From Pelagibacteraceae bacterium AG-426-G02 (GTDB lineage Bacteria > Pseudomonadota > Alphaproteobacteria > Pelagibacterales > Pelagibacteraceae): a DNA stretch of 64,000 bases. A program made the translations under genes and the position numbers. Below are positions 11,187 through 39,351 of the stretch, one piece after another; within the stretch, counting starts at the first letter, position 1, and each line of letters begins with the position of its first letter. The notes beneath the pieces are model-generated. The model was given only the letters and a program-made list of their open reading frames with translations. It had not been told where the DNA came from and did no database searches. The stretch is taken from positions 638-64,637 of the forward strand of contig QCNQ01000004.1 of the NCBI GenBank assembly GCA_003213155.1. The letters run 5' to 3'.

Positions 11187-11245
11187 AAGGAGAAATTTAT
11201 ATCTAATTTAAGCAATGTAAATGAAACTTATTAAGAACTAGCTAA

Positions 11246-12484: not shown

Positions 12485-12579
12485 CGTAAAACTAACAAAA
12501 ATATAAAAAAAATAAACTTTAAAAGCTCAAATTGGACGTCAAAAAAATCAATTAATAAGCGATTTTCGAAAAAAATTAA

Positions 12580-13884
12580 TTAATTAAGTTTTAAACCCTT
12601 GGAAAAACTTAATGCGAAGGAATCGGCTAAATAATCATAGTTCATTATATTAGCTTCAGAGAAAGTTTTTTCATAAGACAAGTTAATAAACAACGATCTG
12701 TTTGGATCAATTATTGGAAAGATATCTCCAATAGCTTTAGTAATCATTATATCTGTTGTTGTTGCGTGATCAGATCTTAACTTTGTAGAGTCGACTGAAG
12801 TATCCGCAGCTTTGTAATCATTAAAACTAGTTGAGGCACTCCATGCAATGTATGCCCATGGAAATGCAAAATTTAAACCCAAACCAAATTCATATGTTTC
12901 GTAATCATTTCCAGCATCAACTTTTGCATCACTATCGCTGTAACCTAAACTTAGTGAGCTAGAAATTATTGGAGTTAAAATTAAATCATAACCAAAAGTA
13001 TAACCATGTCCTATTGCATTAGTTTCATCGGCTGTTGTGTCTTCTGAATTTTGATTTGCCTTAGAGTCTGAATAAGAATACCCATAACTAAAGGAATGTC
13101 TTTCTCCAACTGTAAAAAATCCTCCTACTCCTAACATCAATGAAAAACTGTCTGCATCGTGCTGTGCATCAGTTTTACTCATGATTATATAAGGACTCAA
13201 ACTTTGATTACCTAAAGTGGTATCCAAACCAATTGTTAAACCATAGCTTTGAAAATCATCATCAGCTTCTTGATATTGATTAGATGTTGTATGACCAAAA
13301 TTTAATAATAATGACGACTCTTCACCAACAGGTCTTGTTGCTGTAATACCAATCGAGGCACTTTCAGTTCTATCATGTTTTGGCGATGTAAAAGCTGCGA
13401 TTGAACCTGAATCATATTTTAATCTTGTTTTAGATACACTATTTACGTTATTAGAAAACGTTGCACCAAAACCAACATCGGCTGTAAAATTCCACAAACT
13501 TGGTTCACGATCTCTTAACTCTTCTTCAATTTCTTGTAATGTTTCTAAGTCTTCTGCTGAAAGATCTCTTCTTAATTTCATATCTTCAATAATAGTGTTA
13601 GCTTTTTCTGGAGAGTCGACTTGGACTAAAACAGATAATAAATATAATTTAATTTCAACATTGTCTGGATAAAGCATATTCAATCTTTCAAGTGTTGAGA
13701 TTGTTTGTTTAAAGTTACCAACTTTCCCTTGTTGTTGTGCGTACTTTAAATTTAAATCTAAGTTATTTGGATCTTGTAAGATTTGCATGTAAGTAATATT
13801 TTTTTCTGATGAAAAAACAGATGTCGAAATCAACAGAATTATTGATATCAAAAATAATTTAAATTTTACGAAATACAAAAACAT
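12580..13884 (-). CDS. TPR-containing outer membrane beta-barrel protein
   Basis: Signal peptide; N-terminal helical TPR-like segment (DPNNLDLNLKYA...YPDNVEIKLYL); C-terminal alternating aromatic beta strands. Confidence 0.7.
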   Translation of the reverse strand: MFLYFVKFKLFLISIILLISTSVFSSEKNITYMQILQDPNNLDLNLKYAQQQGKVGNFKQTISTLERLNMLYPDNVEIKLYLLSVLVQVDSPEKANTIIEDMKLRRDLSAEDLETLQEIEEELRDREPSLWNFTADVGFGATFSNNVNSVSKTRLKYDSGSIAAFTSPKHDRTESASIGITATRPVGEESSLLLNFGHTTSNQYQEADDDFQSYGLTIGLDTTLGNQSLSPYIIMSKTDAQHDADSFSLMLGVGGFFTVGERHSFSYGYSYSDSKANQNSEDTTADETNAIGHGYTFGYDLILTPIISSSLSLGYSDSDAKVDAGNDYETYEFGLGLNFAFPWAYIAWSASTSFNDYKAADTSVDSTKLRSDHATTTDIMITKAIGDIFPIIDPNRSLFINLSYEKTFSEANIMNYDYLADSFALSFSKGLKLN

Positions 13885-13944
13885 AAAAATGAAAAGATAT
13901 TAAGTCTATATTTTTTTTCAATTAATTAATTTTAGAAATTACTC

Positions 13945-16107
13945 TTATTTTCCAATACTTATTAAAGTTAAGTCATCAGATAATTTTTTATTTTGGCTAG
14001 ACCCTATTACAGATTGAGTAATGCTATCTAATTGCTTAATAGTATCTTTATTATAATTTTGCTCGATGATACCAATTGAACCATCAATCCCTACTTCTTC
14101 TCCTTTATCGTTTAAACTTTCTGACAATCCATCAGTAAAAGCATAAAACCTTGAACCATTTAATTTTGTTTTATGAATGTTGTAAACACTTTTATCTTTT
14201 TGTTTAATCACACCCAATGGTGGCGCTGAACTTTCAAACTGATCATATTTACCTTGTCCGTTTCTTAAAATTGCAGGTTGATGACCTGCATTCACCCACC
14301 TGATTTCATCTGTAATTAAATTATACTCGCCAACAATTGAAGTTACAAACATACCAGCAGTTTTAGTATTATTTAAATCATTGTTCATATGAAAAACCAT
14401 TTCATCAGGATCTACTTTTGATTGTGCTAAAACCTCAAACAAAGTGGATGCTTTAGCCATGACCATACCCGCATGGATTCCCTTACCAGCAACATCTGCA
14501 ATTATAAAATAAATGCTATCGTTGTGAGGATAAAAACTAAAAAAATCACCTGACACTTCTCTTGCTGCAATATTAATTCCATGGACAGGATAATTTTTTA
14601 AATTTCTTTTTGGTAAAAAGTTTTCTTGAACTTTAACTGCAAGTTTTACTTCTTTTGAAATTCTCTCACGCCACTTATTTTTTTCATCTTCACTAGTCTC
14701 AAGTTTGCTCATAAGTTTATTATAATAAAGACCAATCACGCCCCCTGCTGTAAAAGGATCTTGTGGGCCTCTGATTTTAAGATCACCAGACTCTGATTGT
14801 TTATCTAAAATAGAAATTAAATCATGCTCAATAGAGACAGCATTATGTTCTGCAATATTTAAACCTAATTCTTCTTGAACAGGACTAACTCTTAATGGAT
14901 AAAATTTGTTAAAAAGACTTAAAATTATAAATGAAGATATAAATGTAAATGCACCAATCGAAATGATACCAATTAATTGAATTTTAATTTGAGAAAATCT
15001 ATCAAGACCCGTATCTAAAATACTTAAATCACTAAATAAACCAACTGCTAATGTTCCCCAAACTCCCGCAGCCAAGTGAACTGGCACCGCTCCAACAACA
15101 TCATCAATTTCAAATTTATTTAATACTTCGTTTATGATAATTGCGATAATTGCGCCAACGATCCCAACAAAAATTGAGGTAACTGAAGTCATTGAATTAC
15201 ATCCGGCAGTAATTGCAACTAAACCTGCTAGTGGACCTAAAATGATATAAAATGGATCTGGCTTTTTGAATCTTAAATATGAAATACCTAATCCGGTTAA
15301 CAAACCAAAAGCTGCCGCTAAAAAGGTATTGATTAAAATTAATGGAACTGCTTCATCCATAGCACCATTACTTCCACCATTAAAACCAAACCAACCAAAC
15401 CACAAAATAAGTGTACCTAGCACTGCTAAAGGAAAACTTGAGCCAGTAAACTTTCCTTTATTTGCATCTGAATACTTACCAATTCTTGGGCCTAAAATAA
15501 TAACTGCTGCTAACGCAATCCATCCACCCACAGAGTGAACAATAGTGCTTCCAGCAAAATCAACAAAACCTAAATCGGATAACCAGCCAGTTGTTTTAAC
15601 GGTTCCTGTTATTGCTAAAAGTTGATCAACAGTATCATACTTTGAAAGATAACTTGAAGACCAAGCCCAGTGACCAACAATTGGATAAATAATTCCAGTC
15701 GCTAAAACTGTCATGATTAAATAACCATTAAATTTCATTCTCTCCGCCACTGCACCTGAGATAATTGTTGCCGCTGTTGCAACAAACATTGCTTGAAAGA
15801 CAAAGTAAGTCATGTACTCCGCTTTATCTGTTTTAAAGAAAAATAAATCGGTACCAAAAAATCCATTGTAGGAAGTACCAAACATCAAACCAAAACCAAA
15901 AATCCAAAAGATAACAACCGAAACCCCAAAGTCTGCAGCATTCTTTAATGCAACGTTAATGCTATTTTTGTGTCTAGATAAACCTGTTTCCATACACATA
16001 AAACCTGCTTGCATGATGAAAACTAAAATTGCGCAATCAATCACCCATAAGGTGTCGATATTACTCGTTAAAACATCTATTACTTCTTGAGCCATATCTT
16101 TATCCAT
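13945..16107 (-). CDS. Ammonium transporter (Amt) fused to a PP2C/SpoIIE phosphatase
   Basis: Amt motifs FQAMF, DFAGSTIVH, WFGWFGFNGGS, DDVVGAVPVH; HAMP-like linker; PP2C motifs VSGDFF, ADVAGKG, NAGH, TDG, DDLT. Confidence 0.92.
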   Translation of the reverse strand: MDKDMAQEVIDVLTSNIDTLWVIDCAILVFIMQAGFMCMETGLSRHKNSINVALKNAADFGVSVVIFWIFGFGLMFGTSYNGFFGTDLFFFKTDKAEYMTYFVFQAMFVATAATIISGAVAERMKFNGYLIMTVLATGIIYPIVGHWAWSSSYLSKYDTVDQLLAITGTVKTTGWLSDLGFVDFAGSTIVHSVGGWIALAAVIILGPRIGKYSDANKGKFTGSSFPLAVLGTLILWFGWFGFNGGSNGAMDEAVPLILINTFLAAAFGLLTGLGISYLRFKKPDPFYIILGPLAGLVAITAGCNSMTSVTSIFVGIVGAIIAIIINEVLNKFEIDDVVGAVPVHLAAGVWGTLAVGLFSDLSILDTGLDRFSQIKIQLIGIISIGAFTFISSFIILSLFNKFYPLRVSPVQEELGLNIAEHNAVSIEHDLISILDKQSESGDLKIRGPQDPFTAGGVIGLYYNKLMSKLETSEDEKNKWRERISKEVKLAVKVQENFLPKRNLKNYPVHGINIAAREVSGDFFSFYPHNDSIYFIIADVAGKGIHAGMVMAKASTLFEVLAQSKVDPDEMVFHMNNDLNNTKTAGMFVTSIVGEYNLITDEIRWVNAGHQPAILRNGQGKYDQFESSAPPLGVIKQKDKSVYNIHKTKLNGSRFYAFTDGLSESLNDKGEEVGIDGSIGIIEQNYNKDTIKQLDSITQSVIGSSQNKKLSDDLTLISIGK

Positions 16108-16191
16108 GATTTTAATTAACTACCAAAACAAATTCAACTAGCAATTGGTAAAGTGCTCAAAATGATTTTTTTATAATTGATCGTTATTAAA

Positions 16192-16644
16192 TTAACATCC
16201 CTCAGATGGTTGAACACCACCTCTTCTTCTAACTTCAAGAGTGCATAGAGTGGAAGCACCACCGACAAACTCTTGAGCTATTACAAGAAAATTATTTGAG
16301 TCAGTTCCTCCAATACAATATCCATAACCACCGTCCCTTGGTATTGTTCGATCACCATCAAATAAGGCTATTTCAATCTGTACAATAGTTTCCACGCCGT
16401 CATCGCTACTAGGGGACCGAGGAGCACATACTTCAGAAGAATCTGTTTTAAAGTAACTTCCTGAATTAGCATATTGTTCGGATTGAGCTAAAGCAATCTG
16501 TGCCATAAGATTTTTGGCTGCACTTGCTTTAGCGCTTTGGATATAACCTGAGTAAAGAACCATCCCAGTTGCTGAGAGAATTCCTATTATAGCTACAACC
16601 ACCAAAAGCTCAATTAAACTAAAACCTGAGCTTCTGGTGATCAT
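16192..16644 (-). CDS. Type IV pilin, PilE-like minor pilin
   Basis: G|FSLIELLVVVAIIGIL class III signal; C-terminal Cys pairs. Confidence 0.85.
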   Translation of the reverse strand: MITRSSGFSLIELLVVVAIIGILSATGMVLYSGYIQSAKASAAKNLMAQIALAQSEQYANSGSYFKTDSSEVCAPRSPSSDDGVETIVQIEIALFDGDRTIPRDGGYGYCIGGTDSNNFLVIAQEFVGGASTLCTLEVRRRGGVQPSEGC

Positions 16645-16665
16645 AAGTTTTCTTATCTAAAAATG

Positions 16666-17178
16666 TTATTCCGCAACATCAATTTCATTTGCAACTCTGT
16701 CAGCTGCGACTGCACATGCCTTTGGTCCATCGGCATCTTCTGTAGTTGCATCAAAGCAAGTTGTGACTGTTATAGTATTACTAGAAGCTACTACGTTTAC
16801 GTAACCTCTGTCTGCTTTTTGATCGTGAGAAGTATTCTCTGATCTAACAGCACCTACAGATGTTGCATACGGATTTTTGAAATCTGTAAGTGCAGAAACA
16901 GCAGCAGCAGCAATCGTGCCACCAGTTCTGTTTTCACAATCAAATTCACCAGCTGCTGTTCCAACATCTAGACCAAAAGCTTTTTTGGCACCGACGTTAC
17001 ATTTTTGATCTTCAGCAGCAATATATTTAACCACAGAAGCGTGATTTGATTTAGCTGATGATTTTTTGGCACCTTCAGTGTATCCAGTATAAGCAACAGT
17101 TCCAACTGCAGCCAAAATACCAATAATCGCAACTACGACTAGTAGTTCGATAAGCGTAAAACCTTTATTATTTCTCAT
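16666..17178 (-). CDS. pilA: Type IVa pilin, probable major pilin
   Basis: KG|FTLIELLVVVAIIGILAA; strong RBS (agagga); own upstream intergenic region. Confidence 0.85.
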   Translation of the reverse strand: MRNNKGFTLIELLVVVAIIGILAAVGTVAYTGYTEGAKKSSAKSNHASVVKYIAAEDQKCNVGAKKAFGLDVGTAAGEFDCENRTGGTIAAAAVSALTDFKNPYATSVGAVRSENTSHDQKADRGYVNVVASSNTITVTTCFDATTEDADGPKACAVAADRVANEIDVAE

Positions 17179-17327
17179 GGTTCCTCTTTGTATTAATTAA
17201 ATTAATTTAATAATATGATTTTTAAATATTTTTTTCTAATATGTAAATAAATTAAAGTAGCATTAATAAGCTTTTTTTTTGTGGAAAATAAATAATATCT
17301 GCTCATAATGAGCTAATTTAACAATTT

Positions 17328-17612
17328 ATGACATATAAAATAGAGGAAATTGATACAAAACGAATAGTTCACTTAAATGGTGAAATTGATATGGACGTTG
17401 CTGATAAAGCTAGACAGACAATATTACCTTTGATCGAAGCAGGTCACGAAGTTCATTTAAATTTAAGTAAAGTTGAATATATGGACTCCTCAGGAATTTC
17501 AGTGCTCATTGAAAGTAAAAAATTATCAGAACAAAAAAATACAAAATTTGAATTGGTTGAAGTCAGTAAACCGGTTGAAAAAGTTTTAGCAATGGCGAGG
17601 AAATTTTTATGA
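17328..17612 (+). CDS. STAS-domain anti-anti-sigma factor (SpoIIAA/RsbV-like), copy 1
   Basis: LNGEID and LNLSKVEYMDSSG with the conserved phospho-acceptor Ser. Confidence 0.9.
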   Translation: MTYKIEEIDTKRIVHLNGEIDMDVADKARQTILPLIEAGHEVHLNLSKVEYMDSSGISVLIESKKLSEQKNTKFELVEVSKPVEKVLAMARKFL

Positions 17613-17908
17613 GTTACAAAGTGACTGAAGAAGGAAATGTAGCAACAGTTCATCTTGATGGTGAAATTGATATGGACGTTACTGAAAAAGCAAAAGAAGT
17701 TATTTTCCCACATATTGATGCTGGAAAAGAAGTTCATCTAAATTTAAGTAATGTTCAATATATGGACTCGTCTGGAATTTCAGTATTAATTGAAAGTCAC
17801 CAAAAAGCTTTAGAAAAAAATACAAAAGTAATCATAAAAGAAGTAAGTAAATCTGTTTTAAAAGTCATCATGATGGCAAAATTAGAACAAATATTAAATT
17901 TGGAATAA
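17609..17908 (+). CDS. STAS-domain anti-anti-sigma factor (SpoIIAA/RsbV-like), copy 2
   Basis: LDGEID and LNLSNVQYMDSSG; ATGA overlap with copy 1. Confidence 0.9.
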   Translation: MSYKVTEEGNVATVHLDGEIDMDVTEKAKEVIFPHIDAGKEVHLNLSNVQYMDSSGISVLIESHQKALEKNTKVIIKEVSKSVLKVIMMAKLEQILNLE

Positions 17909-17914
17909 TTACTA

Positions 17915-18346
17915 ATGAGTGAATTAGCTCACACAAATCATACCGAAAAAAAAGATTTCTTAGTACGATCATCAAGTTTAAAAGATGTCAGAAGTTTTTG
18001 CAGGGAAGTTTTTGAAAAACTTCATATTGACCAAAGTTTAAAAGATGAATTAGTTTTAGCAATTGCCGAAGCAGCACAAAATATAGTTAAACATGCTTAC
18101 AAAGACTCACCTGATACAGAAGATAAAATGGTTGTACAAATAAGTTGTAAAGAAAACAAATTACAAATTGGTTTTTATGATATGGGTACACCAGTGGATC
18201 CTGGAAAAGTTAAACACAGAGAAATTGACAATGTTAAACCGGGTGGTTTAGGAACTTTTTTTATTCAACAAATAATGGATGCAGTTGAATTTAAAGATGG
18301 AAAAAAACCTTGGATCAATCACTTAGTTTTAACTAAGCAATTATAA
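17915..18346 (+). CDS. RsbW/SpoIIAB-like Ser kinase (HATPase fold)
   Basis: N box EAAQNIVKHAY, G1 box DMG, G2 box GGLG, IMD. Confidence 0.88.
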   Translation: MSELAHTNHTEKKDFLVRSSSLKDVRSFCREVFEKLHIDQSLKDELVLAIAEAAQNIVKHAYKDSPDTEDKMVVQISCKENKLQIGFYDMGTPVDPGKVKHREIDNVKPGGLGTFFIQQIMDAVEFKDGKKPWINHLVLTKQL

Positions 18347-18350
18347 ATTT

Positions 18351-19592
18351 TTAGCCAATTAAAGCTCCAACATTGAAAATTGGAGAGTACATCGCGATCA
18401 TTAATCCTCCAATCATGATACCCATAAAAACAATCATAATTGGTTCAATTAATGATGAAAGGTTATCAACAGTTGTGTCAAATTCAGCTTCATAATATTT
18501 TGCAACTGATCCAAACATTTCATCGAGTTGTCCAGTTTGTTCCCCTACTGAAATAAGCTGAGAAAAAGTTGGAGGAAATAAAGGATCTTTTAAAAATAAT
18601 TTTGTTAATGTGTCTCCAGAAAAAACCCCTTTTTTTACATTTTCTAAAGACTCTAAAACTACCACATTGGTACTAACTGATTTAGAAATTTCTAAACTTT
18701 CAAGAAGGTTAACACCTGCAGCACTTAAGTTTCCCATGATCAATGAAATTCTAGCTAGCATAGATTTTAATATCATGTCACCGAAAATTGGTAGTTTTAA
18801 AACTTGTTTATGCCAAGCGTATTTCATTTTTTCATTCTTGGAGGTAATATATCTAAAACCTAAAACAAAACCGATTAAACCAAACAGTAAAACTTTTCCA
18901 CCAGTGCCTCTTAAAAAGTCACTCATAGCCATTATAGTTGCTGTTGCAGTGGGTAATTCTATACCCATTCCATCATACATTTTAGCAAATACCGGAACAA
19001 CTTTAACTAACATGAATGCACTAACTGTTACAGCAACTGTAAACATAATACTTGGATACATTAAAGCTGATTTAATCTTCTTTTTAATATTCTCCTTTTT
19101 CTCAAGAGACTCGACAATTTTGAGCAAAAATACATCTAATTTACCACTGGCTTCCCCAGCTTTGATTAAGTTAATGTAGACATTATCGAAAAGCTCAGGA
19201 TATTTTTCAAAACACTTTGATAAAGTAACTCCACCTTCTAAGCTTTTTCTAATATCTTCGATAATGTCTTTCATAGCGGGACTTTCAATTTGATCTCTTA
19301 ACATTCCCAAAACCTGTAAAATCGGCAAACCTGCTTTGACCATAGTTGCAAATTGTTTTGAAAATATTAGAACATCCTCGACTTTTGCCTTCTTTTTTCC
19401 AAAAAGGCTAAATCCTTTACCTTTTTTCTTCTCTTTTACCTCTGTTTTTCTCTTTTTTGACGAACGAACTATATTCGTTATGATAATTTTTTGTTCTTTA
19501 AGCTTATGAGATGCCTCATCTAAATTAAGCGCTTCAATTTCTCCATCTACATATTTGCCTTCAGATATGCCTTTGTAAGTAAATGCTTCCAT
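18351..19592 (-). CDS. pilC: Type IV pilus platform protein PilC (T2SS F family)
   Basis: QFATMVKAGLP, AGEASGKLD, SALMYP, VGEQTGQLD, LIEP. Confidence 0.93.
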   Translation of the reverse strand: MEAFTYKGISEGKYVDGEIEALNLDEASHKLKEQKIIITNIVRSSKKRKTEVKEKKKGKGFSLFGKKKAKVEDVLIFSKQFATMVKAGLPILQVLGMLRDQIESPAMKDIIEDIRKSLEGGVTLSKCFEKYPELFDNVYINLIKAGEASGKLDVFLLKIVESLEKKENIKKKIKSALMYPSIMFTVAVTVSAFMLVKVVPVFAKMYDGMGIELPTATATIMAMSDFLRGTGGKVLLFGLIGFVLGFRYITSKNEKMKYAWHKQVLKLPIFGDMILKSMLARISLIMGNLSAAGVNLLESLEISKSVSTNVVVLESLENVKKGVFSGDTLTKLFLKDPLFPPTFSQLISVGEQTGQLDEMFGSVAKYYEAEFDTTVDNLSSLIEPIMIVFMGIMIGGLMIAMYSPIFNVGALIG

Positions 19593-19606
19593 AAATTAAC
19601 AATTAT

Positions 19607-21358
19607 TTATCCCTCAGACAAAACTCTTTCAAATTCTCTAAAATTTAGTTCACCTGATGCAATTAATCTTCTACCCATATCTTGCATTGTTTGAAAACCT
19701 TCTTTAACTGCAATTTCTCTTAATTCAGGAGTTGTGGCCTGTCTTAGAATTGCTTCTTTAAGAGGCTTAGAAACCGATAGTATTTCATAAATACCTTGTC
19801 TGCCTTTATATCCTGTGTCTTTACACTTTGGACACCCTTTACCTTTAATTGCTTTTACCCTTGATGCAACTTCAGCAGTAAAACCCAAATCTTGTAGAAC
19901 TTTTGGAGTTACATCATCATCAGGAACTTTACAATCTTTGCAATTTTTTCTTGCAAGTCTTTGGGCTACAACAAGTTGACAAGCAGCGCTGATTAAATAA
20001 TCAGGCGTTCCCATATTCTGTAATCTAGTAATTGTACTTGGTGCATCATTAGTGTGCAACGTACTAAATACTAAGTGACCCGTTAAAGCAGCTTTCAAAC
20101 CGATATCAACAGTTTCTTTATCCCTCATCTCTCCAACTAGAATAATTTCAGGATCTTGTCTTAAAAAAGATCTAAGAGCTTTAGCAAAAGTAAAACCAAT
20201 ATCATCTTTTATTTGAACTTGTCCTACACCATCTAATTCATATTCAACAGGATCTTCAGCAGTTAAAATATTTAAATGAGGTTTACTTACTTCCTTCAAG
20301 ATACTGTATAAAGTAGTTGATTTACCAGAACCTGTGGGACCTGTTACAAGAATTAGACCTTGAGTACTATGAATTGACTTTCTTAAACTTTTTAAATCTT
20401 GCTCTTCAAAGTTAAGTTGCTCTAAAGTTATATCTCCCGCATCCTTGTTAAGAACCCGCATTACAATTCTCTCATTATTTGCTGTAGGTAAAATTGAAAG
20501 CCTAAGGTCAACTACCTTGCCTTCAATTTTAAAGTTTATTGCACCATCTTGGGGTAATCTTCTTTCAGCAATATCAAGTTTACCCATAATTTTAAAACGT
20601 GTTACTACCGCGCCGTAATTATCATGAAGAAATTTTCGATACTGTTCTTGCTCAGTAAGCATACCATCAAGTCTATATCTTACTCTTGATGTGAACCTAT
20701 AAGGTTCAATGTGAATATCACTGACACCGCTTTTAATTGCATCTGCAACAACAGCAGTACTGAATTTTATAACTTCAGATTCATTTTCGATTGCCTCAAT
20801 ATCCTCTTCTGGCGTATTTTCTAACACCTCTCCCGCTTCACCTAGATCAGAATCAAAAGTTTTTTGTTTTTCTTTATTTTCTTCTCTAATGGTTGCAGCA
20901 GTCACCTCTCCACTTTCATTTGAAATTTTTTCTATGTACTGAGAAATCTGCGTTAAGGGTGCCGCATGTAACTCAATATTTTTTTTTGTTATTGCTTTTA
21001 AATTTCTCATTAAATTTAGTTTAGAGCTATCAGGAATAGCTATGTGTAAAGTTTTGCCATCAATTTTAAAAGGTGCAACGAAATTTACTTTTATATAATT
21101 AGATGGAAGAACAGTTTTGATCTCTTCAGAAACTTCTTGTTTGGCAAGATCAACAATTTCAAGATTTTGCTCTTTAACTAAAATATCAAGAATTTTTTTT
21201 TCATCAGTTAACTTAAGGTCAAATACAGCCTCAATTTGAGATTTATTTCCCTCAGTACTAGTCTTCTTTATATTTATTAAATCTTTTCCAGAAATTACAT
21301 CATTATCAATTAAAACATTGATTAAATTAATTTCACTTTCTCTGCTTATCTTTAACAT
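19607..21358 (-). CDS. pilB: Type IV pilus extension ATPase PilB
   Basis: DIAERRLPQDG, Walker A GPTGSGKST, LRQDPEIILVGEMRD, STLHTN, CxxC..CxxC Zn motif. Confidence 0.95.
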   Translation of the reverse strand: MLKISRESEINLINVLIDNDVISGKDLINIKKTSTEGNKSQIEAVFDLKLTDEKKILDILVKEQNLEIVDLAKQEVSEEIKTVLPSNYIKVNFVAPFKIDGKTLHIAIPDSSKLNLMRNLKAITKKNIELHAAPLTQISQYIEKISNESGEVTAATIREENKEKQKTFDSDLGEAGEVLENTPEEDIEAIENESEVIKFSTAVVADAIKSGVSDIHIEPYRFTSRVRYRLDGMLTEQEQYRKFLHDNYGAVVTRFKIMGKLDIAERRLPQDGAINFKIEGKVVDLRLSILPTANNERIVMRVLNKDAGDITLEQLNFEEQDLKSLRKSIHSTQGLILVTGPTGSGKSTTLYSILKEVSKPHLNILTAEDPVEYELDGVGQVQIKDDIGFTFAKALRSFLRQDPEIILVGEMRDKETVDIGLKAALTGHLVFSTLHTNDAPSTITRLQNMGTPDYLISAACQLVVAQRLARKNCKDCKVPDDDVTPKVLQDLGFTAEVASRVKAIKGKGCPKCKDTGYKGRQGIYEILSVSKPLKEAILRQATTPELREIAVKEGFQTMQDMGRRLIASGELNFREFERVLSEG

Positions 21359-21362
21359 ATTA

Positions 21363-22919
21363 TTATAAAATTCTTGGAGCGATAAACACCAATAAGTCAG
21401 TTAATTTATCAGATTTACTTGTCCCTTTAAACATTTTTCCAACGATAGGAAGATTTGCTGCGCCTGGGACTTGACCTGCTTTATCAGAAACAGTATTTTT
21501 CTTTATTCCACCAATTACAACGATATCGCCGTCAGCAACTAGTAATTTTGTAGCAATTTCCATGGTGTTTATTCCAACGCTACCAGCATTCTGTCTGTTT
21601 GGAGAGTCATTGTTTACTTTTACATCTAGAAGCACATTTCCATCTCCAATGATACTAGGTGTTACTGTCATAACCAATGCTGCATCAGTAAATGTGTCAG
21701 CGCCATCACCTCCCGCTACAGGAATTTGTTCACCTTGTTTGATTGTTGCAGTTTGATTATCTAAAGAAAATATTTTTGGATTAGAGATTATTTTGGATAT
21801 ACCTTTTTTCTCCATTGCTTCCAATTCTACTTTTAACACCGCTGAACCTGTTTTTTTTAATATTCCTATACCTGAAGTAGCCCCAGCAGCGGGTAAATTC
21901 ATTAATGTATCTTTTCCATCACCAAGGTTTGAAGTGTCATCGGATATAGAAGAGTCTGTCCCAGATGGCGCACCTACGGAAGTACCACCAAGAGTACCTC
22001 CTGCTCTCATATCTTGTCTTGCAAAAGCACCTCCTAATTTTTTACCAAGCTCTTGCTCAAAAGAAGACTCGGCCTCTACTATGTATACCTCCATTAAAAC
22101 TTGTTTAGTTCTAACATCAATTTCTCTTAAAACTTTATCGACTACATCTAAATCTTTTTCTTTACCTCTAACAATAATAGAACGAGTAGTTTTTTCCTCT
22201 GTAACTTGTATAGGCATAAATGAACCTGCACCACCGCTAGAAGTAAATAGTTCAGTTATTGTAGCTTTGGCTTCTGCTGGAGAAATATAGTATAGTCTAA
22301 ATATTTCTGAAATAATTGGTTCAACTGAGTCCTCTAATTCAACTTTCTTTTTAACAGCTTGAGCTCTTGCAGATTTATAACTTTCTTGAGAAGTTAATGT
22401 TGCCGGAGTAGCTACTCTTATAATGTTACTAGCAACATCAATGTCTGCTGCATAATTTTTCATATCCAATAAAGCATTAAAAGCTTTATCCCAAGGTACA
22501 TCTGTCAATGAAGCTGTAACTGACCCAGCAACATCCTCACCCACAAGAATGTTCACATTACCGATTTCTCCCATTAATCTCATGGTTTCACCGTAGTCCA
22601 TATTTTGAAAATTAAATGTTACGTTTTGTTTTAAACTTACATATTCCTCGGGAATTAAAAGATAATTTTTTTCTTTAACTGCAGATAGTTTTTTTCTTTT
22701 TTTAAGTTTTACAACATCTCCTTCTACTGGAGTTGGGCCCATCTCCGCCATTTTATCAATTTCTGCTTTACCCATTTCTTTAACATCAGTCTTAATAAGT
22801 GGAGTATTGTGCTTAAAAATTTTGCTAGATTTTTTCTTACCCGTAGCGGTACAGCCTGCAACTAATAATCCTACAACAATAAAGCTTGTAAATATTTTTA
22901 AAAAAGATTTTTTCATCAA
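21363..22919 (-). CDS. pilQ: Type IV pilus secretin PilQ (lipoprotein-type N-terminus)
   Basis: VPWDKAFNALL, secretin core (VTPSII, IVVIGG, VPGAANLPIVGKMF, LLVFIAPRIL); LVAGC lipobox. Confidence 0.92.
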   Translation of the reverse strand: MMKKSFLKIFTSFIVVGLLVAGCTATGKKKSSKIFKHNTPLIKTDVKEMGKAEIDKMAEMGPTPVEGDVVKLKKRKKLSAVKEKNYLLIPEEYVSLKQNVTFNFQNMDYGETMRLMGEIGNVNILVGEDVAGSVTASLTDVPWDKAFNALLDMKNYAADIDVASNIIRVATPATLTSQESYKSARAQAVKKKVELEDSVEPIISEIFRLYYISPAEAKATITELFTSSGGAGSFMPIQVTEEKTTRSIIVRGKEKDLDVVDKVLREIDVRTKQVLMEVYIVEAESSFEQELGKKLGGAFARQDMRAGGTLGGTSVGAPSGTDSSISDDTSNLGDGKDTLMNLPAAGATSGIGILKKTGSAVLKVELEAMEKKGISKIISNPKIFSLDNQTATIKQGEQIPVAGGDGADTFTDAALVMTVTPSIIGDGNVLLDVKVNNDSPNRQNAGSVGINTMEIATKLLVADGDIVVIGGIKKNTVSDKAGQVPGAANLPIVGKMFKGTSKSDKLTDLLVFIAPRIL

Positions 22920-23425
22920 TTGTTTCTCTCTATAATTTGATTTTTGAAATTAATTACAACTAAGGAATCCTCACCATTTTCAAAAATAACTTCTTTTTTA
23001 CTAATACCTATCAATCTTACTCCTGGAGATAGCTCATCATTAAAAGCAACATTTATTATGTCACCATTTTCATCTACCAAAGATGCGAAACCTACGCCTT
23101 CACCTTCAATTATTCCTACTAATTTGTAATTGAACACACTCAATTTTTTCTTTTTCTCCTCAGTTTCTGCAATTAGTTTTACACCTGCGCTAGAACCTCC
23201 AAGAGTACCATCACCGACAAAAGGATCATTTAATGGGAGTGGCTCTTCTTTACTAATCTCTGAACTGATATTCGATTTTTTCTGTGCTTGCTGTTCTTTT
23301 ATTTTTTGGTTTACTTCTTTTGCTCGCTCAACAATATTCTGCTCTTTATCATGGTTATCAGCTTTTCCCGCGAATGCAAAAAACAACATGAAAATGATAT
23401 ATGTTATTTTCCTAAAAAAATTCAT
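22916..23425 (-). CDS. pilP: PilP-like pilus alignment protein
   Basis: DPF motif, YKLVGII beta domain, position between pilO and pilQ. Confidence 0.7.
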   Translation of the reverse strand: MNFFRKITYIIFMLFFAFAGKADNHDKEQNIVERAKEVNQKIKEQQAQKKSNISSEISKEEPLPLNDPFVGDGTLGGSSAGVKLIAETEEKKKKLSVFNYKLVGIIEGEGVGFASLVDENGDIINVAFNDELSPGVRLIGISKKEVIFENGEDSLVVINFKNQIIERNN

Positions 23426-24110
23426 CTGCCAAACCTACAATAGTTAATGTTCCATTCACTTTTATCGCTCCAGTTGAATCTCCCTGTTTTACCACTTTGA
23501 TAGACTCATTGTCAAAGTTTAACGTCTTTTGCGATAGAGATAATTGCCTTTTAAACTTAATATATCCTAAAAAATTTCCAGTTATCTCAAAATCTACTGG
23601 GATTTTATAATAAGCTATATTTTTTACTTCTCGTTTCTGTTTCTTTTTCTTTTTCTTTTTCTTTTTTTTACTAACTGAAGCTATTGCATCAGCTTTAGTG
23701 ACCTCTGCTATTTTTTTCTTTTCAATTTTAGAAATTACTAAATTATTCATTGCAGCAAATTCACTCAAGGTTTGATACAAGCCCTCAACTTCAGCTTTGG
23801 TGTGAAATAGAGTTGAATATTGCTCATATTGAGGTCTCTTTAGTTTTATTTTTTTATTTTTAGATTTTATGTCGCTTACAAATTTTGCTGTTTCTTCTTT
23901 TTTCTTATTCATGTCGTCGAGTTGTGCTTTTTTCTTATTAACAATGGGATTTAAAACTGCATAGAAAATAACTAAAAAGAAAACTACTGCTCCCACAGAT
24001 ACTCCTAATTTAATCCAAGTTTTTTTATCAACGTTTTTTAGTTTTGCTTGAATATCTTCGAGAGATATATTTTTTAAGTCAATATTTTTTAAATCAATTT
24101 TGAAGTTCAT
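23412..24110 (-). CDS. pilO: PilO pilus alignment protein
   Basis: Single TM, coiled coil, YYKIPVDFEITGNF motif; contains a K10 tract. Confidence 0.82.
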   Translation of the reverse strand: MNFKIDLKNIDLKNISLEDIQAKLKNVDKKTWIKLGVSVGAVVFFLVIFYAVLNPIVNKKKAQLDDMNKKKEETAKFVSDIKSKNKKIKLKRPQYEQYSTLFHTKAEVEGLYQTLSEFAAMNNLVISKIEKKKIAEVTKADAIASVSKKKKKKKKKKQKREVKNIAYYKIPVDFEITGNFLGYIKFKRQLSLSQKTLNFDNESIKVVKQGDSTGAIKVNGTLTIVGLADEFF

Positions 24111-26518
24111 AATTTTACTTTTTTAATTTTTACAAAAACTCTAAACCCTTTCATTGTTACTCCACCTTGTGTTGATCGAGGAAGTCTCATTGAAGACAAA
24201 GATGCTTGCTCAACTAATTCCTGTTTTCCCAAGTTATCAATAAACTTTAAAATATCTTGATCGCTTGCTGCAATACCCTGTATGGTAATCATACGTCCAC
24301 CATTATAATCAACTTGATCAAATTTTAATCTTGCTGGGACACTTGATGCAATCTGGGCTAATATTCTATAAGTTAATTCTTTGTTAGATTTTAAAGTTGA
24401 ACTTAATTTTAATGTAGTTTCAATTAATTGTAATTCTTTTGAGACTTTTTTTAACTCTGCAGATTTTTCTTTATGAACTTTAACGACATTAGAATAGTCT
24501 TTTAATTTTTTATTGTAGGAATGAATATTCCAAAAAGATAATGAAAATAAAATTAAATATAATGCTGCTATACCGCCAGCTAATCCTTTAAATGCAAAAC
24601 TTGAAATTGCTTTCATTTTCTTTTGCTGAAACATACTTTTTCTATTAGGAAGTAAGTTTATGTTTTTTGCAGCAGTTACAAATTTATAATATCCAAATAC
24701 ATCAAGTTTTCTAAACGCTAATCCTACAGGTGTAGCTAAGTAAGATCTATTTTCTAAATTGATTTGCTGTTCAAATTGTTGTGGTACTTTTAAACCTTCA
24801 ATTGGGTCAAATAAATTAAAGCCAACATTCATTAATACTTTTCTAAAAAATGATAAATATTCCTCAACATTTTTAAGATCTGAAACAACTTTAATATTTC
24901 TAATTCTTTTTTCATATTTTGTTTCAAAATCTTGAACTGCTTGTTTAACTTGTGTGACGTACCTTCTAACTAGTGCTTCTTTTTCCTCTACATCCTCAGA
25001 CTCTAATAAAATTTTTCTATCCTGCCCTCTTAAAAAAATATCAGTAATTATTGGGTTATTATCATACAAAATCATTAAATAGTTTTCATCTAAACCAAAT
25101 TCTAACACCGCTGTTAAATTTGCGTCTTCAGTTTTATTAGTGATTTGATTAATTTGGTCGACAGCAGATTTTAGAGCAAAACATTTAACATCAATAATTA
25201 CAGGGTTTAACCCACTATTTTTTACGATTGATACGTAGCTATTTATATCTGCCAATTTAGATGCAACAAAAAGAATATCCATTGTATTATCTTTTTCATT
25301 TCGATTAATCACTTGATGAAAAATTGAATAATCATCTAAGTTATCTGTTAGTTGAACTAAATTCTCCCACAATGAGTTCGTTTCAATTGCTTTTTGCAAT
25401 TCCTCTTCTTTCATAAGTGGAGAAGTAACCACTCTTATGATTGCACTAGTAACTGGTATTGAGATCGCAACATTATTTACATCTATTTTAGACTTTTGTA
25501 ACGCTAAACTTAGTTCTGTTGTAACTTTTTCAGCATTTTCAAGAACACTACTTTCATCAGGAATTTCTATTGGATGAGAATAAAATTTATCTAACACCCA
25601 TTGATTTGACTTGTTTGTATTTATTTGCGCAAGTCTTATCTCTTTATTAGTTAACTCAACACCAATAACCTCTTCTCCTTGAACAGAAGATTTACTAATT
25701 TTTGATTTAAAAAATTCTAATGCTTTGTTAAAAGGATTGTTTCGTTTCTTTTCTGGTGACTTGGGTAGTTTAATTCCTTTTAGTGAAGGTTTTTTAAATT
25801 TTAAATTTTTTAATTTACCAAAAATATTTGAAACTTTACTTTTTGATTTTTCTTCAGTTGTTTCCTCAACTTTTGTTGCGACTTCATTGTTAATAGTAAT
25901 ATTGTTTTCAACTATACTCTCATCTTTTGAAGGAACAATTTTTTGCTCATCAGTTTTAATTTCTGAAGTTTCATCTTTAACATCTGGGGTTTCAACAGGA
26001 ATTATTTTTTCTTCTACGTTTGTATTTGTTTCCGGTTGATTTTGCACTGGAGCTGGGGTTTGTTCTCCCGCTTCAGCAATTTTTTTTAGTTTTTCACTTT
26101 CTGCTTGAACATCATCAAACCATTTTTCTAAAATTGGTATTGCCTCATCTAGATTTGTTGTTCCTGAAGACGAGATTTTTTGTTTTCCATCAATATAAAG
26201 TCTTCCAACCCAATTTTTAGATTTAAGTTCGCCTTTGTATTTGTCTTGTCTAACGTAAATATGAAGTCTTCCATCCTTTTTGTGAATAACTTGGTGAGTA
26301 GATCCCTCATTCTCATCTTTTTTTTCAACTAACGCATCAGAGACCTTAGTTTCGTCAGTATTTTGATCAATATTTTCATTTGCACTCTGAATTTTTTCAT
26401 TATCTAGATTTTGTACACCTTCAGGTTGATTTTTATCTTCAATTTCAGATTGATTTTCAGATCCAGATTGATTTGGATCATCATTTAAAATTTTTTTATC
26501 TTCGTCTTGATCACTCAT
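24107..26518 (-). CDS. pilM: PilM-PilN fusion with an N-terminal acidic linker and a putative arm-type DNA-binding domain
   Basis: aa ~283-610 PilM-like (VIGVEL, VAISIP, GLNPVIIDV, VGLAFR); INLLP PilN motif at ~aa 620; TM; PilN periplasmic domain (ITIQGIA). Confidence 0.85.
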   Translation of the reverse strand: MSDQDEDKKILNDDPNQSGSENQSEIEDKNQPEGVQNLDNEKIQSANENIDQNTDETKVSDALVEKKDENEGSTHQVIHKKDGRLHIYVRQDKYKGELKSKNWVGRLYIDGKQKISSSGTTNLDEAIPILEKWFDDVQAESEKLKKIAEAGEQTPAPVQNQPETNTNVEEKIIPVETPDVKDETSEIKTDEQKIVPSKDESIVENNITINNEVATKVEETTEEKSKSKVSNIFGKLKNLKFKKPSLKGIKLPKSPEKKRNNPFNKALEFFKSKISKSSVQGEEVIGVELTNKEIRLAQINTNKSNQWVLDKFYSHPIEIPDESSVLENAEKVTTELSLALQKSKIDVNNVAISIPVTSAIIRVVTSPLMKEEELQKAIETNSLWENLVQLTDNLDDYSIFHQVINRNEKDNTMDILFVASKLADINSYVSIVKNSGLNPVIIDVKCFALKSAVDQINQITNKTEDANLTAVLEFGLDENYLMILYDNNPIITDIFLRGQDRKILLESEDVEEKEALVRRYVTQVKQAVQDFETKYEKRIRNIKVVSDLKNVEEYLSFFRKVLMNVGFNLFDPIEGLKVPQQFEQQINLENRSYLATPVGLAFRKLDVFGYYKFVTAAKNINLLPNRKSMFQQKKMKAISSFAFKGLAGGIAALYLILFSLSFWNIHSYNKKLKDYSNVVKVHKEKSAELKKVSKELQLIETTLKLSSTLKSNKELTYRILAQIASSVPARLKFDQVDYNGGRMITIQGIAASDQDILKFIDNLGKQELVEQASLSSMRLPRSTQGGVTMKGFRVFVKIKKVKL

Positions 26519-26537
26519 ATTAAAAAATAAATATTTT

Positions 26538-26860
26538 CTCTAACACAATTTACGAATCTCTAACACAAAAATCATTTTTAGTCTAACACAAAATTAAATA
26601 TTATATGTTCAAAATGAGTTTTTTATTAAAAAAGTAAGGAAAATCGGGATTTTTAAGCTAATTCTATTTTTTTTTAAAATTTATTAAAATATATAAACTC
26701 TAACACAATTAAATTTTTTAGATTGTGTTAGAGTAATTTACGATTGTGTTAGAGTTAAATTTTTTTCAGAAATTTAAAAAAACCTAATAAAATCAACAAT
26801 TTTTGTTTTTTTAAAAATTTAGAGCAATTTGTGTTAGAGTTTTAAATTTTTGTGTTAGAG
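26538..26860. repeat. Array of eight 11-bp CTCTAACACAA motifs (4 direct, then 4 inverted) upstream of pilM
   Basis: Forward copies at 26538, 26558, 26581 (G for first C) and 26698; reverse copies (TTGTGTTAGAG) at 26723, 26744, 26829 and 26850. Confidence 0.95.
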
Positions 26861-27364: not shown

Positions 27365-28648
27365 CTATAGCCCGTCAACTACAACAATAGTTAAATCATC
27401 TTTTTGTATTCGACCAGATTTAATAATATCTTCGACAATCTTGTTTAATCTTTCATAATTAGGAACAGGTTGATATTTTTTTATATAATTTTTGAATCCA
27501 TCTGACTCTAACATGTTTCCTTTTGTATCTTTTATTTCGGTAATACCATCGGTAAAAATATACATTGAACTATTTGAAAAATTAATTTTTGTTTCTTTAA
27601 ATTTAAACTTTGGAGCAATACCTAACGGTGGACCAGCTTCATCAAAATTAGAAAAATTTCCTTCATTGTCATATATTAAAGGTGGTTCGTGTCCAGCATT
27701 AGCTAAAGTAAGTTCTTTTTTATTACTATCATAAATTCCAATCAACATTGTAACAAACATTCCTCTTGATGTTGTTTCACATATTTCAGAATTCAAAATA
27801 TTTAAAAGTTCTGCTGCAGAAAAATTTGTTTTGCTTAAACATCTATAAAGACTTGATGCCTTTGACATAAGTAAAGAAGATTTTATTCCTTTACCAGACA
27901 CATCCGCAACACCAAAACCATAAACTCCTTCTGTAAGCTCTGCAAAATTATAAAAATCTCCCGAGACTACCTTAGCTGGAATATTTATTCCTGCTATTGG
28001 AAATTTTTCTTTTTGGTTTTGAGATAGTAAAGTTTTTTGTATCTCTCCAACAATTTCTATTTCTTTCTGCATTCTATTTTTATCAACAAGATCTTTTGCC
28101 ATTCTTGCATTTCTAATTGCTAATGCGGCAGGTCCAGATAAAGTTTCCAAAAGTTTTCTATCGTTCTCTTCAAATAATTTATTATTTGTCTTTTTATTTA
28201 AACAATGAATAACTCCTATACACTCATCTGATACTATTAAAGGAGAACATAAAACAGAATACGTAGTAAAATTTGTTTTATTATCTAGGTCAAAATAAAA
28301 TTCAGCAATTTCTCTAACGTCTTTTCTTACATCGCCTACCCTTATACATTTTTTTAATACTACTGCTTTACCCATTACACCTTGCGTAATAGGAATTTCA
28401 AAATCTTCTAGATATGCTTGATGTTTGGATGCAATACACTGAAAAGACTGGTTCTTATCATCAATTAAAAAAATATTAGCAGCTTGTGCATTTATTCTTT
28501 TAATAATTAATTCTAGAGAATTACTTAAAGTTTCTTTTAGATCTAACGACTTAGCTAGATCATGATTCATTTTTGTAACTAATTCTAGATCTTTACTGGT
28601 AGTATCGTCCACATTAGTTGTTTCTTTTTTTTTCGCGCTAAAAAACAT
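27365..28648 (-). CDS. GAF-domain PP2C/SpoIIE phosphatase (RsbU/RsbP-like)
   Basis: GAF domain (TNFTTYSVLCSPL...GVIHCLNKK...FEENDRKLL); PP2C motifs VSGDFY, ADVSGKG, NAGH, TDG, DDLT; ATG 28648 preferred over TTG 28798. Confidence 0.88.
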   Translation of the reverse strand: MFFSAKKKETTNVDDTTSKDLELVTKMNHDLAKSLDLKETLSNSLELIIKRINAQAANIFLIDDKNQSFQCIASKHQAYLEDFEIPITQGVMGKAVVLKKCIRVGDVRKDVREIAEFYFDLDNKTNFTTYSVLCSPLIVSDECIGVIHCLNKKTNNKLFEENDRKLLETLSGPAALAIRNARMAKDLVDKNRMQKEIEIVGEIQKTLLSQNQKEKFPIAGINIPAKVVSGDFYNFAELTEGVYGFGVADVSGKGIKSSLLMSKASSLYRCLSKTNFSAAELLNILNSEICETTSRGMFVTMLIGIYDSNKKELTLANAGHEPPLIYDNEGNFSNFDEAGPPLGIAPKFKFKETKINFSNSSMYIFTDGITEIKDTKGNMLESDGFKNYIKKYQPVPNYERLNKIVEDIIKSGRIQKDDLTIVVVDGL

Positions 28649-28813
28649 GTTATTTATAAATTGATATTCATTAATTTTTTGATAATTTTGATTATGATGG
28701 AAATCATGATTCATGCGCCAAATTTCTATTTGCACATAGCTGATGCGATGTTGTTTATACAATATTGCATCGATGGACTCATAGAATTTTCCTCCCAAAT
28801 TAAACTATAAATT

Positions 28814-37535: not shown

Positions 37536-38363
37536 TTAATCATAAACATATTTTGGTGCTTCATCATCACACGCCCATTTCTTATCACCATTACCTGCGT
37601 CTATCTCGTATTCATTAACATATCTGCTGGTGACAACATTTCCAAATCTATTCCAATGAACTCTACTCACTATTACTTCACCATCATCTATTACCTTACC
37701 TTCTGAATTTACAGGTTTTTCTGGACAAATATCACCGTCAACATCACTCGGCATAGCTATTCCACAAACTGGATTAAAACTTTCTCGCCTACAAATATTT
37801 ATAAAATTGAAAGGAACACCTGTAGATTCGTCAAAAGCAAGAGACGCAGATCCTTCATAAAATTTGCCATTTTTTGCAAAACAAACTGCTGCTGCTCTTT
37901 CCCCAAAAAAATTTGTAGACACATCCTTTAGTTCAATAGCATAAACAGCATTTTTTATCTCATTACTTGTGCTTTTATTATCAGTGTCCCAATAATTATT
38001 ATCCTCTTCAAAATCTCCAGCATCCGTTTTACATCTTTTGTTTTTTTCTTTATTCCAGGGGCTCTCGCCATTATTCATTCGAGTTATTAAACTTGCCAAA
38101 GTCATGCCTCGTGATTCTATTTTTAAATGGTTCGCCGTATTTGAAAAAAGTACTTGGACATAAGCAAAAGTACCTCTTTCTGTTTGAACTATAGCGTTTC
38201 TTATCATTGCTTCAACCTCTTTAACTGCAGCTCTGGTTTTTCTTTCTTTATTCCATGAAGAAAAATTTGGATATGAAATTGCAGATATAAATCCAACAAT
38301 TGCAATGACAACAATTAATTCTAAAAGATTAAATCCTTTATTGTTCTTTACCTGCCCCAGCAT
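37536..38363 (-). CDS. Minor pilin FimT/FimU-like
   Basis: KG|FNLLELIVVIAIVG..SYPNF; first gene of the minor pilin run. Confidence 0.78.
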   Translation of the reverse strand: MLGQVKNNKGFNLLELIVVIAIVGFISAISYPNFSSWNKERKTRAAVKEVEAMIRNAIVQTERGTFAYVQVLFSNTANHLKIESRGMTLASLITRMNNGESPWNKEKNKRCKTDAGDFEEDNNYWDTDNKSTSNEIKNAVYAIELKDVSTNFFGERAAAVCFAKNGKFYEGSASLAFDESTGVPFNFINICRRESFNPVCGIAMPSDVDGDICPEKPVNSEGKVIDDGEVIVSRVHWNRFGNVVTSRYVNEYEIDAGNGDKKWACDDEAPKYVYD

Positions 38364-39351
38364 CTATCTTTCCAGCTTTAACTAATTCTTCTAATGATTT
38401 TGCCATTGTAATCATTCCATCTTTTACTGCTGTTTGCATGATGCTTGGGATTTGATGAATTTTCGCTTCTCGGATTAAGTTTTGAATTGGGGCTGTACAC
38501 TTCATCACTTCGAAAGCACCACAACGGCCTTGACCATCTTTAGTTTTAAGAAGTCTTTGCGTGACTACCATTTTTAAAGATGTCGAAATTTGAGCTCTGA
38601 TCTGTGCCTGTTGCTCAGGCGGGAATACATCGATAATTCTATTAATTGTATTTGGTGCGCCACTGGTATGTAGTGTACCAAATACTAAGTGACCTGTTTC
38701 CGCTGCTGTTAATGCAAGAGAAACTGTTTCTAAATCTCTCATCTCTCCTACCAGAATAACATCAGGATCCTCTCGCAGTGCCGCTTTTAAAGCACTCGCA
38801 AAAGTTTGTGTTTGTTTTCCAACCTCTCGATGAGAGACAATGCTTTTTGCATCCTTGTGAATAAATTCAACTGGATCCTCTACAGTAATAATATTTGCAG
38901 TTCGGGTCTTATTAATTTCATTAACAATTGCAGCAAGCGTAGTTGATTTTCCTGATCCTGTTGGTCCTGTAACCAACACAAGTCCTTTGTGCATATCAAT
39001 AATATCATAAAGAACTGGTGGTAAATCAAATTGTCCCATCTCTGGGATGACACTTTCAACTCTTCTGAGTACTGCTGCCGGTCCATTAATAGTTTTGTAA
39101 AAATTTGCCCTAAATCTTAAACCACTAAGTGTAACTGACGAGTCAAGTTCATGAGTGTCATTAAATCTTTTCATTTCAACTTCATTACAATTGGTCGATA
39201 TTAAATCTTGGAGATCTTGTGCTTTAACCATCACCTCTGGAACTTTGTGAATTTCTCCTGTTTGTCTAAATGCTAACGGCCAACCACTTCTAATGTGGAA
39301 ATCTGATATTTTTTTATTATTTTTTGCTAATTCTTCTAATTTTTCAAACAT
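38338..39351 (-). CDS. pilT: Type IV pilus retraction ATPase PilT
   Basis: GPTGSGKSTTLAA, ALREDPDVILVGEMRD, AAETGHLVFGTLHT, PIQNLIRE. Confidence 0.95.
   Translation of the reverse strand: MFEKLEELAKNNKKISDFHIRSGWPLAFRQTGEIHKVPEVMVKAQDLQDLISTNCNEVEMKRFNDTHELDSSVTLSGLRFRANFYKTINGPAAVLRRVESVIPEMGQFDLPPVLYDIIDMHKGLVLVTGPTGSGKSTTLAAIVNEINKTRTANIITVEDPVEFIHKDAKSIVSHREVGKQTQTFASALKAALREDPDVILVGEMRDLETVSLALTAAETGHLVFGTLHTSGAPNTINRIIDVFPPEQQAQIRAQISTSLKMVVTQRLLKTKDGQGRCGAFEVMKCTAPIQNLIREAKIHQIPSIMQTAVKDGMITMAKSLEELVKAGKIDAGAGKEQ

Follow-up and report, generated by a model that had tools for sequence, protein, structure and literature searches.

A PilM–PilN pilus fusion in Pelagibacterales carries a putative integrase arm domain beside an array of its candidate sites

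Why would a structural subunit of a type IV pilus carry what looks like a DNA-binding domain directly beside a cluster of short repeats? The question is raised by a pilMN fusion gene in a 64,000-nt stretch of Pelagibacteraceae bacterium AG-426-G02 (contig QCNQ01000004.1, positions 638 to 64,637; hereafter the window). The gene (24107..26518, (-) strand) encodes 803 aa, in which open reading frames (ORFs) and a Pfam scan delineate, in order, an acidic linker, an arm-type domain, a second linker, PilM, a transmembrane stretch and PilN. PilM_2 (aa 286-490, E 9.6e-18) and PilN (aa 719-781, E 5e-8) lie in the same chain on either side of the product's single hydrophobic stretch (~aa 640-663; Kyte–Doolittle 19-mer peak 1.79), as expected of a type IVa PilM–PilN fusion. 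Pfam finds these two domains and no core-binding (CB) or catalytic (CAT) domain, so the protein is not a whole tyrosine recombinase; the sole PF00589 match in this genome is a 325-aa frame on a different contig. A preliminary description, made from the letters and their translations, had picked out an island of ~68 aa (aa ~73-140) between two acidic linkers, and both composition and the contrast in conservation bear this out. Residues 1-72 hold 22 D/E against 7 K/R and residues 141-228 hold 21 against 12, and the identity of the linkers among 12 close relatives is low, at 23-48%.

Comparison with integrases supports the homology of this island (aa 73-140; 26099..26302, (-) strand) to the N-terminal, arm-type domain of tyrosine integrases. 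Among 301 genomes of the order (Pelagibacterales), the domain was matched 63 times, in 62 genomes. By identity and by position beside PilM core matches, 57 of these are of the PilM type (68-100% identical), and four others are 425-445-aa open frames, integrases beside tRNA-Leu; two weak matches (G149 and G234) were left out of both classes. A search of 1.84 billion proteins returned 127 matches, including proteins of 410-436 aa with the domain at their N terminus, and the only relatives found outside PilM were the N termini of tRNA-Leu tyrosine integrases and a short phage protein. PF00589 was matched in all seven scanned integrase-type proteins, once above the curated cut-off and otherwise at E 4e-6 to 8e-3, and the R, K, R and Y at catalytic positions are invariant in 10/10 aligned integrases. 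The window domain is 69% identical to its closest integrase (locus L114), and that of the relative G270 is 72% identical to L095. The domain corresponds by homology to the region N-terminal to CB and CAT in tyrosine recombinases (an AB-domain class of these enzymes is defined in PMC8138268). An alignment-based AlphaFold2 model (predicted local distance difference test, pLDDT, 88.4) has the order strand-strand-strand-helix. Like the arm domains of lambda Int and of P4-like/HPI integrases (3rmp, 3jtz), the island is homologous to the N terminus of CB+CAT integrases and is predicted to form three strands and a helix; unlike known integrase arm domains, it is fused to a pilus protein and has neither a core-binding nor a catalytic domain. 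We make the assignment because of sequence homology and position in integrases, and not on the strength of a fold search.

The repeats upstream of the gene form a compact array. At up to one mismatch, CTCTAACACAA occurs eight times in the window, always within 26538-26860, where 1.59 +/- 1.25 copies in the window are expected by chance and 0/100 shuffles reach eight; all seven exact copies in the whole 1,039,357-bp assembly (83% complete) fall here. The eight-copy array that the preliminary description placed 20 bp upstream is thus present, with one copy inexact (one mismatch, at 26581) and the first copy 19 bp from the ATG; four copies lie on each strand. A proximal triple of arm-like sites (26538, 26558 and 26581; 26538..26591, (+) strand) occupies the pilMN leader and keeps its position in relatives. 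A middle group (26698..26754) consists of an inverted pair 25 bp apart (26698, +; 26723, -) together with 26744 (-), and a distal pair 21 bp apart spans 26829..26860 on the (-) strand. Across 33 non-identical arrays, neighbours on the same strand are 19-23 bp apart in 104/166 cases, and the common long spacings (85-87, 116-118 and 127-128 bp) are near whole helical turns. A site at 26791..26803 ((+) strand) has one mismatch to WATCAANNNNTTR, the consensus of integration host factor (IHF) used for scoring. The preliminary description points to IHF as the protein that loops the arm sites of integrases such as lambda Int. With this consensus, the 33 arrays hold 27 IHF-like sites against a shuffled mean of 14.75 (maximum 26, 100 shuffles), an enrichment and only a modest one. 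The window's genome has three genes of the HU/IHF family.

Near-identical repeats mark the integrases that share the domain. We looked at 85 integrase loci, many of them near-duplicates; four without an N terminus were dropped, leaving 81, and the weak loci L068-L071 were also dropped. Most named records among the relatives of the integrase belong to Pelagibacteraceae/Pelagibacterales, and neither the integrase nor the short phage protein was matched in GenBank phages. The elements split tRNA-Leu(CAA) at a CTCAAAA core, with the core upstream in 74/81 and the 5' tRNA half in 38/81, and they usually carry a replacement tRNA-Leu. Their size is 4.8-5.2 kb in nine of the 11 cases in which a length could be measured, and L062 is a tandem run of three copies. 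CTCT[AT]ACAC, near-identical to the pilMN repeat, recurs at the att ends and before the start codon: a direct pair 11 bp apart lies ~65 bp before the integrase start and recurs at the far att end, and an inverted copy lies ~20 bp before the ATG. Within 130 bp of the integrase start, TCT[AT]ACAC occurs in 58/81 loci, at 10.5/kb against 0.09/kb in coding sequence. The repeats therefore flank the recombination core at both ends of the donor elements and resemble the arm-type sites of known integrases, which are short direct and inverted repeats near att ends. Exact TCTAACACA is present in 25/81 integrase loci, and other element clades carry TTTGACAC, TCGTACAC, TCTGACAC, TCAAACAC or TCATACAC. The match of sites holds at the level of the family; the exact PilM pair is absent from those integrases that most resemble the PilM domains. 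The spacing also differs, at 11 bp in the donor elements and 21 bp at pilMN.

Several side observations concern these elements. The family comprising L051, L052, L061-L067 and L072-L149 splits tRNA-Leu(CAA) at the anticodon loop. L051 and L052 encode, in addition, a serine recombinase and a lipoprotein with a relative among the genes of T4-like phage contigs, and in genome G084 a second short recombinase-like gene (L053:15833-16411) directly follows tRNA-Leu, which suggests stacked elements. In their ~5-kb size, their integrase and the tandem three-copy form of L062, the elements resemble the marine phage satellites/VEIMEs of Pelagibacter described in PMC9618062.

Domain and array travel together across genomes, as a check proposed in the preliminary description had asked. 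The paired motif TCTAACACA-N10-14-TCTAACACA occurs in 55/301 genomes, against one for a reversed control. It is found in 55/57 genomes with a PilM-type domain and in 0/244 others, the latter including 57 with a PilM core and no domain match. The two exceptions are G249, with four single copies upstream, and G308, whose contig begins inside the domain. PilM cores are present in 113 genomes; in one of the 57 without a domain match, G159, the contig ends 58 bp upstream. The array is a single locus per genome, no array occurs without the domain in the 301 genomes, and the window's genome holds no second copy of the domain. The CTCTAACACAA motif is invariant where spacers and flanks diverge, even where the domain is 68-73% identical and the array is re-arranged, and the array variants among relatives resemble gain or loss of single sites. 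Expanded arrays of at least 750 bp, with up to 11 copies, were seen in G150, G125, G203 and G081 (L041, L042, L045 and L047). An invertible switch, raised by '++-' versus '+--' middle groups and by CATTTTG/CAAAATG variants, found no backing: among 15 of the 27 joints from four metagenome contig sets (contigs only), none changes strand. The CATTTTG/CAAAATG variants match a palindromic host site whose centre is free.

Conservation of the domain exceeds that of the PilM core in 18/18 loci, with many synonymous changes: 87-96% identity (aa 75-137) against 75-91% in 12 close loci, and 68-84% against 51-54% in six distant ones. At the level of these alignments, the pattern shows purifying selection on the domain. 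A full integrase of this family was absent from 5/5 complete domain-bearing genomes, and so the array is not kept for one. Because homology, near-identical integrase repeats and co-occurrence coincide, the view that an arm domain was captured together with its sites is well supported by sequence comparison, and the earlier proposal of an arm domain and sites domesticated without the catalytic domain holds up on the same three counts. The domain-bearing PilM cores fall into two groups, and the sister clade of the window's group lacks the domain; a single clade of domain-bearing cores was rejected (approximately unbiased test, p 0.000245) on a quick LG+G4 tree of 20 rows, and a 43-row core tree is likewise a quick version. 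Since these cores are not one clade, the joint change of domain and array happened at least twice, so that one gain with joint loss, or transfer of the module between pilus systems, would account for the distribution. A single origin of all PilM domains is given by 66% of 200 bootstrap trees (64 columns only). In G270, G297 and G249 the domain lies at the very N terminus and the array lies between divergent pilT and pilMN, an arrangement that looks like a capture state.

What would the captured module do? We consider it very probable that the pilMN-borne domain binds the array, and we give an even chance to autorepression of the pilMN–pilC operon by membrane-bound PilMN as the selected function. 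We propose an in-frame fusion of pilMN to the 5' portion of an integrative element (att arm, promoter and first ~65 codons); the domain, on a flexible cytoplasmic linker of ~140 aa, would read CTCTAACACAA. Because single arm domains would bind weakly, the array, spaced at 21 bp and roughly in phase, would be gripped mainly by several copies of PilMN together, as in an assembled base. Occupied promoter sites would block transcription and give negative feedback on the number of pilus machines, with retention of the locus at the membrane as a by-product of occupancy. Binding, repression and its dependence on avidity are what we infer for PilMN.

The placement of the sites favours autorepression over pure tethering, because they lie on promoter-like elements or immediately after them, which is the arrangement of self-repressing integrases; of the roles proposed earlier, autoregulation of the pilus operon is the one that this placement fits best. 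Just upstream of the proximal triple lies a TATAAT -10-like hexamer (26600..26605, (-) strand), a putative promoter element, and such a hexamer lies at most 18 bp upstream of the proximal sites in 20/32 close leaders, against 1-10 of 27-31 in 13 control windows. In G270, G297 and G249 a site falls within the spacer of TTGACA-17-TATTGT, and the inverted leader site of many free integrases lies over TGnTATAAT. Next to the hexamer is a 13-bp palindrome, RCYCA-WWW-TGRRY (26607..26619, strand-less), a likely host regulator site predating the array. It occurs in 30 domain-bearing leaders; most sister leaders that lack the domain have similar sequences, as do the upstream regions of other island genes, so that the arms were apparently placed around an older promoter. 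An integrase promoter that overlaps attL is repressed by the integrase itself (PMC2951348); IntS of KplE1 acts on its promoter in this way, and the site nearest the -10 box is implicated. The pilMN case resembles KplE1 IntS in that the protein's sites overlap its own promoter region and the donor elements share the attL-then-integrase layout, and differs in that the putative circuit would regulate a type IV pilus operon through a membrane-anchored binder.

A number of results weigh against this interpretation. Foldseek with the domain model gave no match at E<=0.001, and the arm domain 3rmp ranked second at E 0.78; VIA-align aligned 60 residues of 3jtz (Z 5.0, root-mean-square deviation 2.9), tied with unrelated folds. 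The Foldseek comparison suggested earlier for aa 73-140 thus brought arm domains to high ranks without lifting them clear of noise. Sequence searches of Pfam and PDB with the window domain or its alignment left the domain unmatched, including by the Pfam arm families; in PHROG it was likewise unmatched. There is no fine-scale code linking domain and site: the integrase most similar to the G270 domain, L095, carries pairs of TCAAACAC, and the one most similar to the window domain, L114, carries TCTTACAC. The genomes are related, so the co-occurrence counts overstate independence. The phasing test is weak (p 0.013), with 12 hand-picked spacing classes and a period chosen after looking. Promoters were guessed from consensus in a very AT-rich leader, and the array region holds six promoter-like sites where 8.4 are expected by chance. 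An array of eight sites over 320 bp exceeds the need of simple repression, and single arm-site mutations in KplE1 did not derepress (PMC2951348). Separately from these objections, two further readouts concern the fold: ESM features place the domain at 0.92 to the Arm-DNA-bind_1, Integrase_DNA and Arm-DNA-bind_2 clusters, behind unnamed clusters, and a single-sequence fold (pLDDT 70.5) gave Foldseek matches that are all unrelated.

A tentative extension of autorepression is that the machine counts itself. Only an assembled, multi-copy PilMN base would clamp the phased array, pin the operon to the pilus and shut it off. Since satellite-like elements and T4-like phages have the same reader, free on an integrase or on a membrane tail, host pilus, satellite and phage would share one DNA code through which they can act on each other's sites.

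Less probable than autorepression is that domain and array mainly tether the locus to the pilus base, for local synthesis of pilus parts or as a chromosome anchor, with little effect on transcription. The membrane anchor and long linker of PilMN would suit such a role, as would the spacings of 19-23 bp and the long spacing classes, which are apt for a multivalent partner, the single array locus per genome and the phages that also put the domain on a hydrophobic tail. The sites, however, sit on promoter-like elements, and 57/113 PilM-core genomes have no domain match. In seven complete genomes the locus lies 97, 171, 173, 179, 321, 324 and 331 kb from dnaA, so there is no fixed ori or ter anchor and no parS-like position near the origin; of the chromosome anchoring or segregation envisaged in the preliminary description, a role at ori or ter is accordingly disfavoured.

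It is unlikely that the system serves conflict with mobile elements, in which the domain would bind the att arms of tRNA-Leu elements (blocking the integrase promoter or holding the DNA at the membrane) and the array would titrate the domain or let elements and phages act on pilus expression. The element sites are the same or one base away, and phages carry the domain as well. Five marine viral contigs with T4-like genes (IMG/VR; L189:3983-4330, L190, L191:1828-2178, L192:3983-4333 and L193:1078-1416) encode a 112-116-aa protein in which a domain 66-81% identical to the free integrases precedes a tail of ~40 aa ending in a hydrophobic helix. The protein has no catalytic domain, and its tail is a gene of its own in L199/L200; this is a second, independent capture of the domain, and an anti-satellite or pilus shut-off role is possible. 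The five contigs (partial genomes, 8-37% complete) hold no array, which points to targets in trans, and the paired motif gave 15 scattered matches in viral contigs, none with the domain or PilM nearby. A lipoprotein among the element cargo also resembles a phage gene (27% identity, pairwise E 2e-8). Against such a role, an apparently intact element coexists with a domain-bearing PilM in G167, an integrase of this kind was matched in only 4/301 genomes, and defence needs no conserved, phased array before its own gene.

Activation by binding (positive feedback, with on/off piliation), for example through looping with IHF to the host regulator site, is improbable. Distal sites 190-340 bp upstream, IHF-like sites and the adjacent palindrome do resemble an enhancer-type layout, but the proximal sites are placed between -35 and -10, on the -10 or shortly after it, as is typical of a repressor. 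A shade less probable again is that the domain no longer reads the array and is merely co-inherited with it, another protein binding the array and the domain binding protein; physical linkage alone would suffice for co-inheritance, yet the motif is invariant while spacers and flanks diverge, there is no second domain copy and no array occurs without the domain. Least probable is the earlier suggestion that a tether positions the chromosome beside DNA taken up by the pilus in natural transformation, for despite a PilT-type ATPase, one pilin with a sub-threshold ComP_DUS match (E 2.6e-5) and the DNA uptake suggested for SAR11 pili in PMC12789548, ComEC and DprA, the marks of a competence pilus, were each found in 0/6 genomes (the window's genome, 83% complete, and five complete domain-bearing ones), where divergent homologues could be missed and control families were detected in 10-11 of 14.

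With autorepression as the preferred function, how does the system compare with what is described? The PilM–PilN fusion of Pelagibacter and the existence of two pilus versions are noted in bioRxiv 10.64898/2026.10.07.757358. The fusion there likewise has PilM_2 and PilN in one chain and an island with pilQ, pilB, pilC, pilT, pilD and pilY1; a DNA-binding domain and repeat array are not mentioned in the accessible part of the text. The role of the SAR11 pilus is called unclear in PMC12789548, and the string 'pil' does not occur in the text of 10.64898/2026.04.03.716430. In full-text literature, where most subscription papers were out of reach, we found no description of a PilM with an integrase domain or of this array.

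Precedents exist for the parts. ToxR/CadC and PutA are membrane-tethered regulators, and TnpB-derived repressors are reportedly domesticated DNA binders from mobile elements. The likeness is that catalysis is lost and DNA recognition kept, or that a membrane-bound protein controls transcription; the difference is that PilMN itself forms part of the structure of the machine whose operon it would control, and that it brought its own sites. Each part is known, and a pilus structural subunit with a captured DNA reader and its own array matches no system that we found. Should the binding be borne out, a type IV pilus would have a structural component that also binds the chromosome at specific sequences, by way of a captured integrase domain and its sites. 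A streamlined genome would thereby gain a feedback loop without a separate regulator, there would be a direct test of how SAR11 controls its pilus, and the pilus would be linked to conflict with satellites and phages. The pilMN system is common, being present in 57/301 sampled genomes.

The surrounding island is that of a type IVa pilus, with secretin, extension ATPase, platform, prepilin peptidase and pilins at the pilMN locus. The presumed operon downstream of pilMN (18351..24110, (-) strand) comprises a pilO-like gene (23412-24110) whose match is below the Pfam cut-off (E 0.0019), a gene of 169 aa in the pilP position with no Pfam match, the pilQ secretin, the pilB ATPase and the pilC platform. 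Genes for pilD, pilY1, minor pilins and a PilT-type ATPase lie near the operon. The last of these (38338..39351, (-) strand; PF00437, E 1.5e-50) is named PilT from size and context, and given such an ATPase the pilus is likely retractile.

Some loci depart from the standard gene. In G154 (L055:7276-7758), G125 (L042) and G030 (L009/L020), pilMN is apparently split or interrupted, through assembly error or a real split, and in G154 the domain is a separate 160-aa ORF. In G308 a domain 94-95% identical to the PilM type lies at a contig start (C6:1-117, L166); its frame has 105 aa, no PilM core is found less than 3 kb away, and the contig is possibly chimeric. The database protein P0143 (476 aa) joins a PilM-type domain to a DegT aminotransferase, probably by misassembly. 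Short stand-alone PilM-type domain proteins were set aside as a candidate class, since they look like contig or frameshift fragments.

The palindrome RCYCA-WWW-TGRRY recurs upstream of several island genes (window 17301-17313, 12525, 16155, 35024, 9116 and 26607), and eight of its 25 best matches in the genome fall in the 64-kb window, one of them from the training set. A perfect copy lies at G000 C19:13253, and the palindrome is the likely site of a host regulator. The pilus island also contains a partner-switching set (window 9135-18346 and 27365-28798) made up of three SpoIIE phosphatases, with CHASE2, ammonium-transporter and GAF input, an RsbW-type kinase and two short anti-sigma-antagonist-like ORFs at ~17330-17910.

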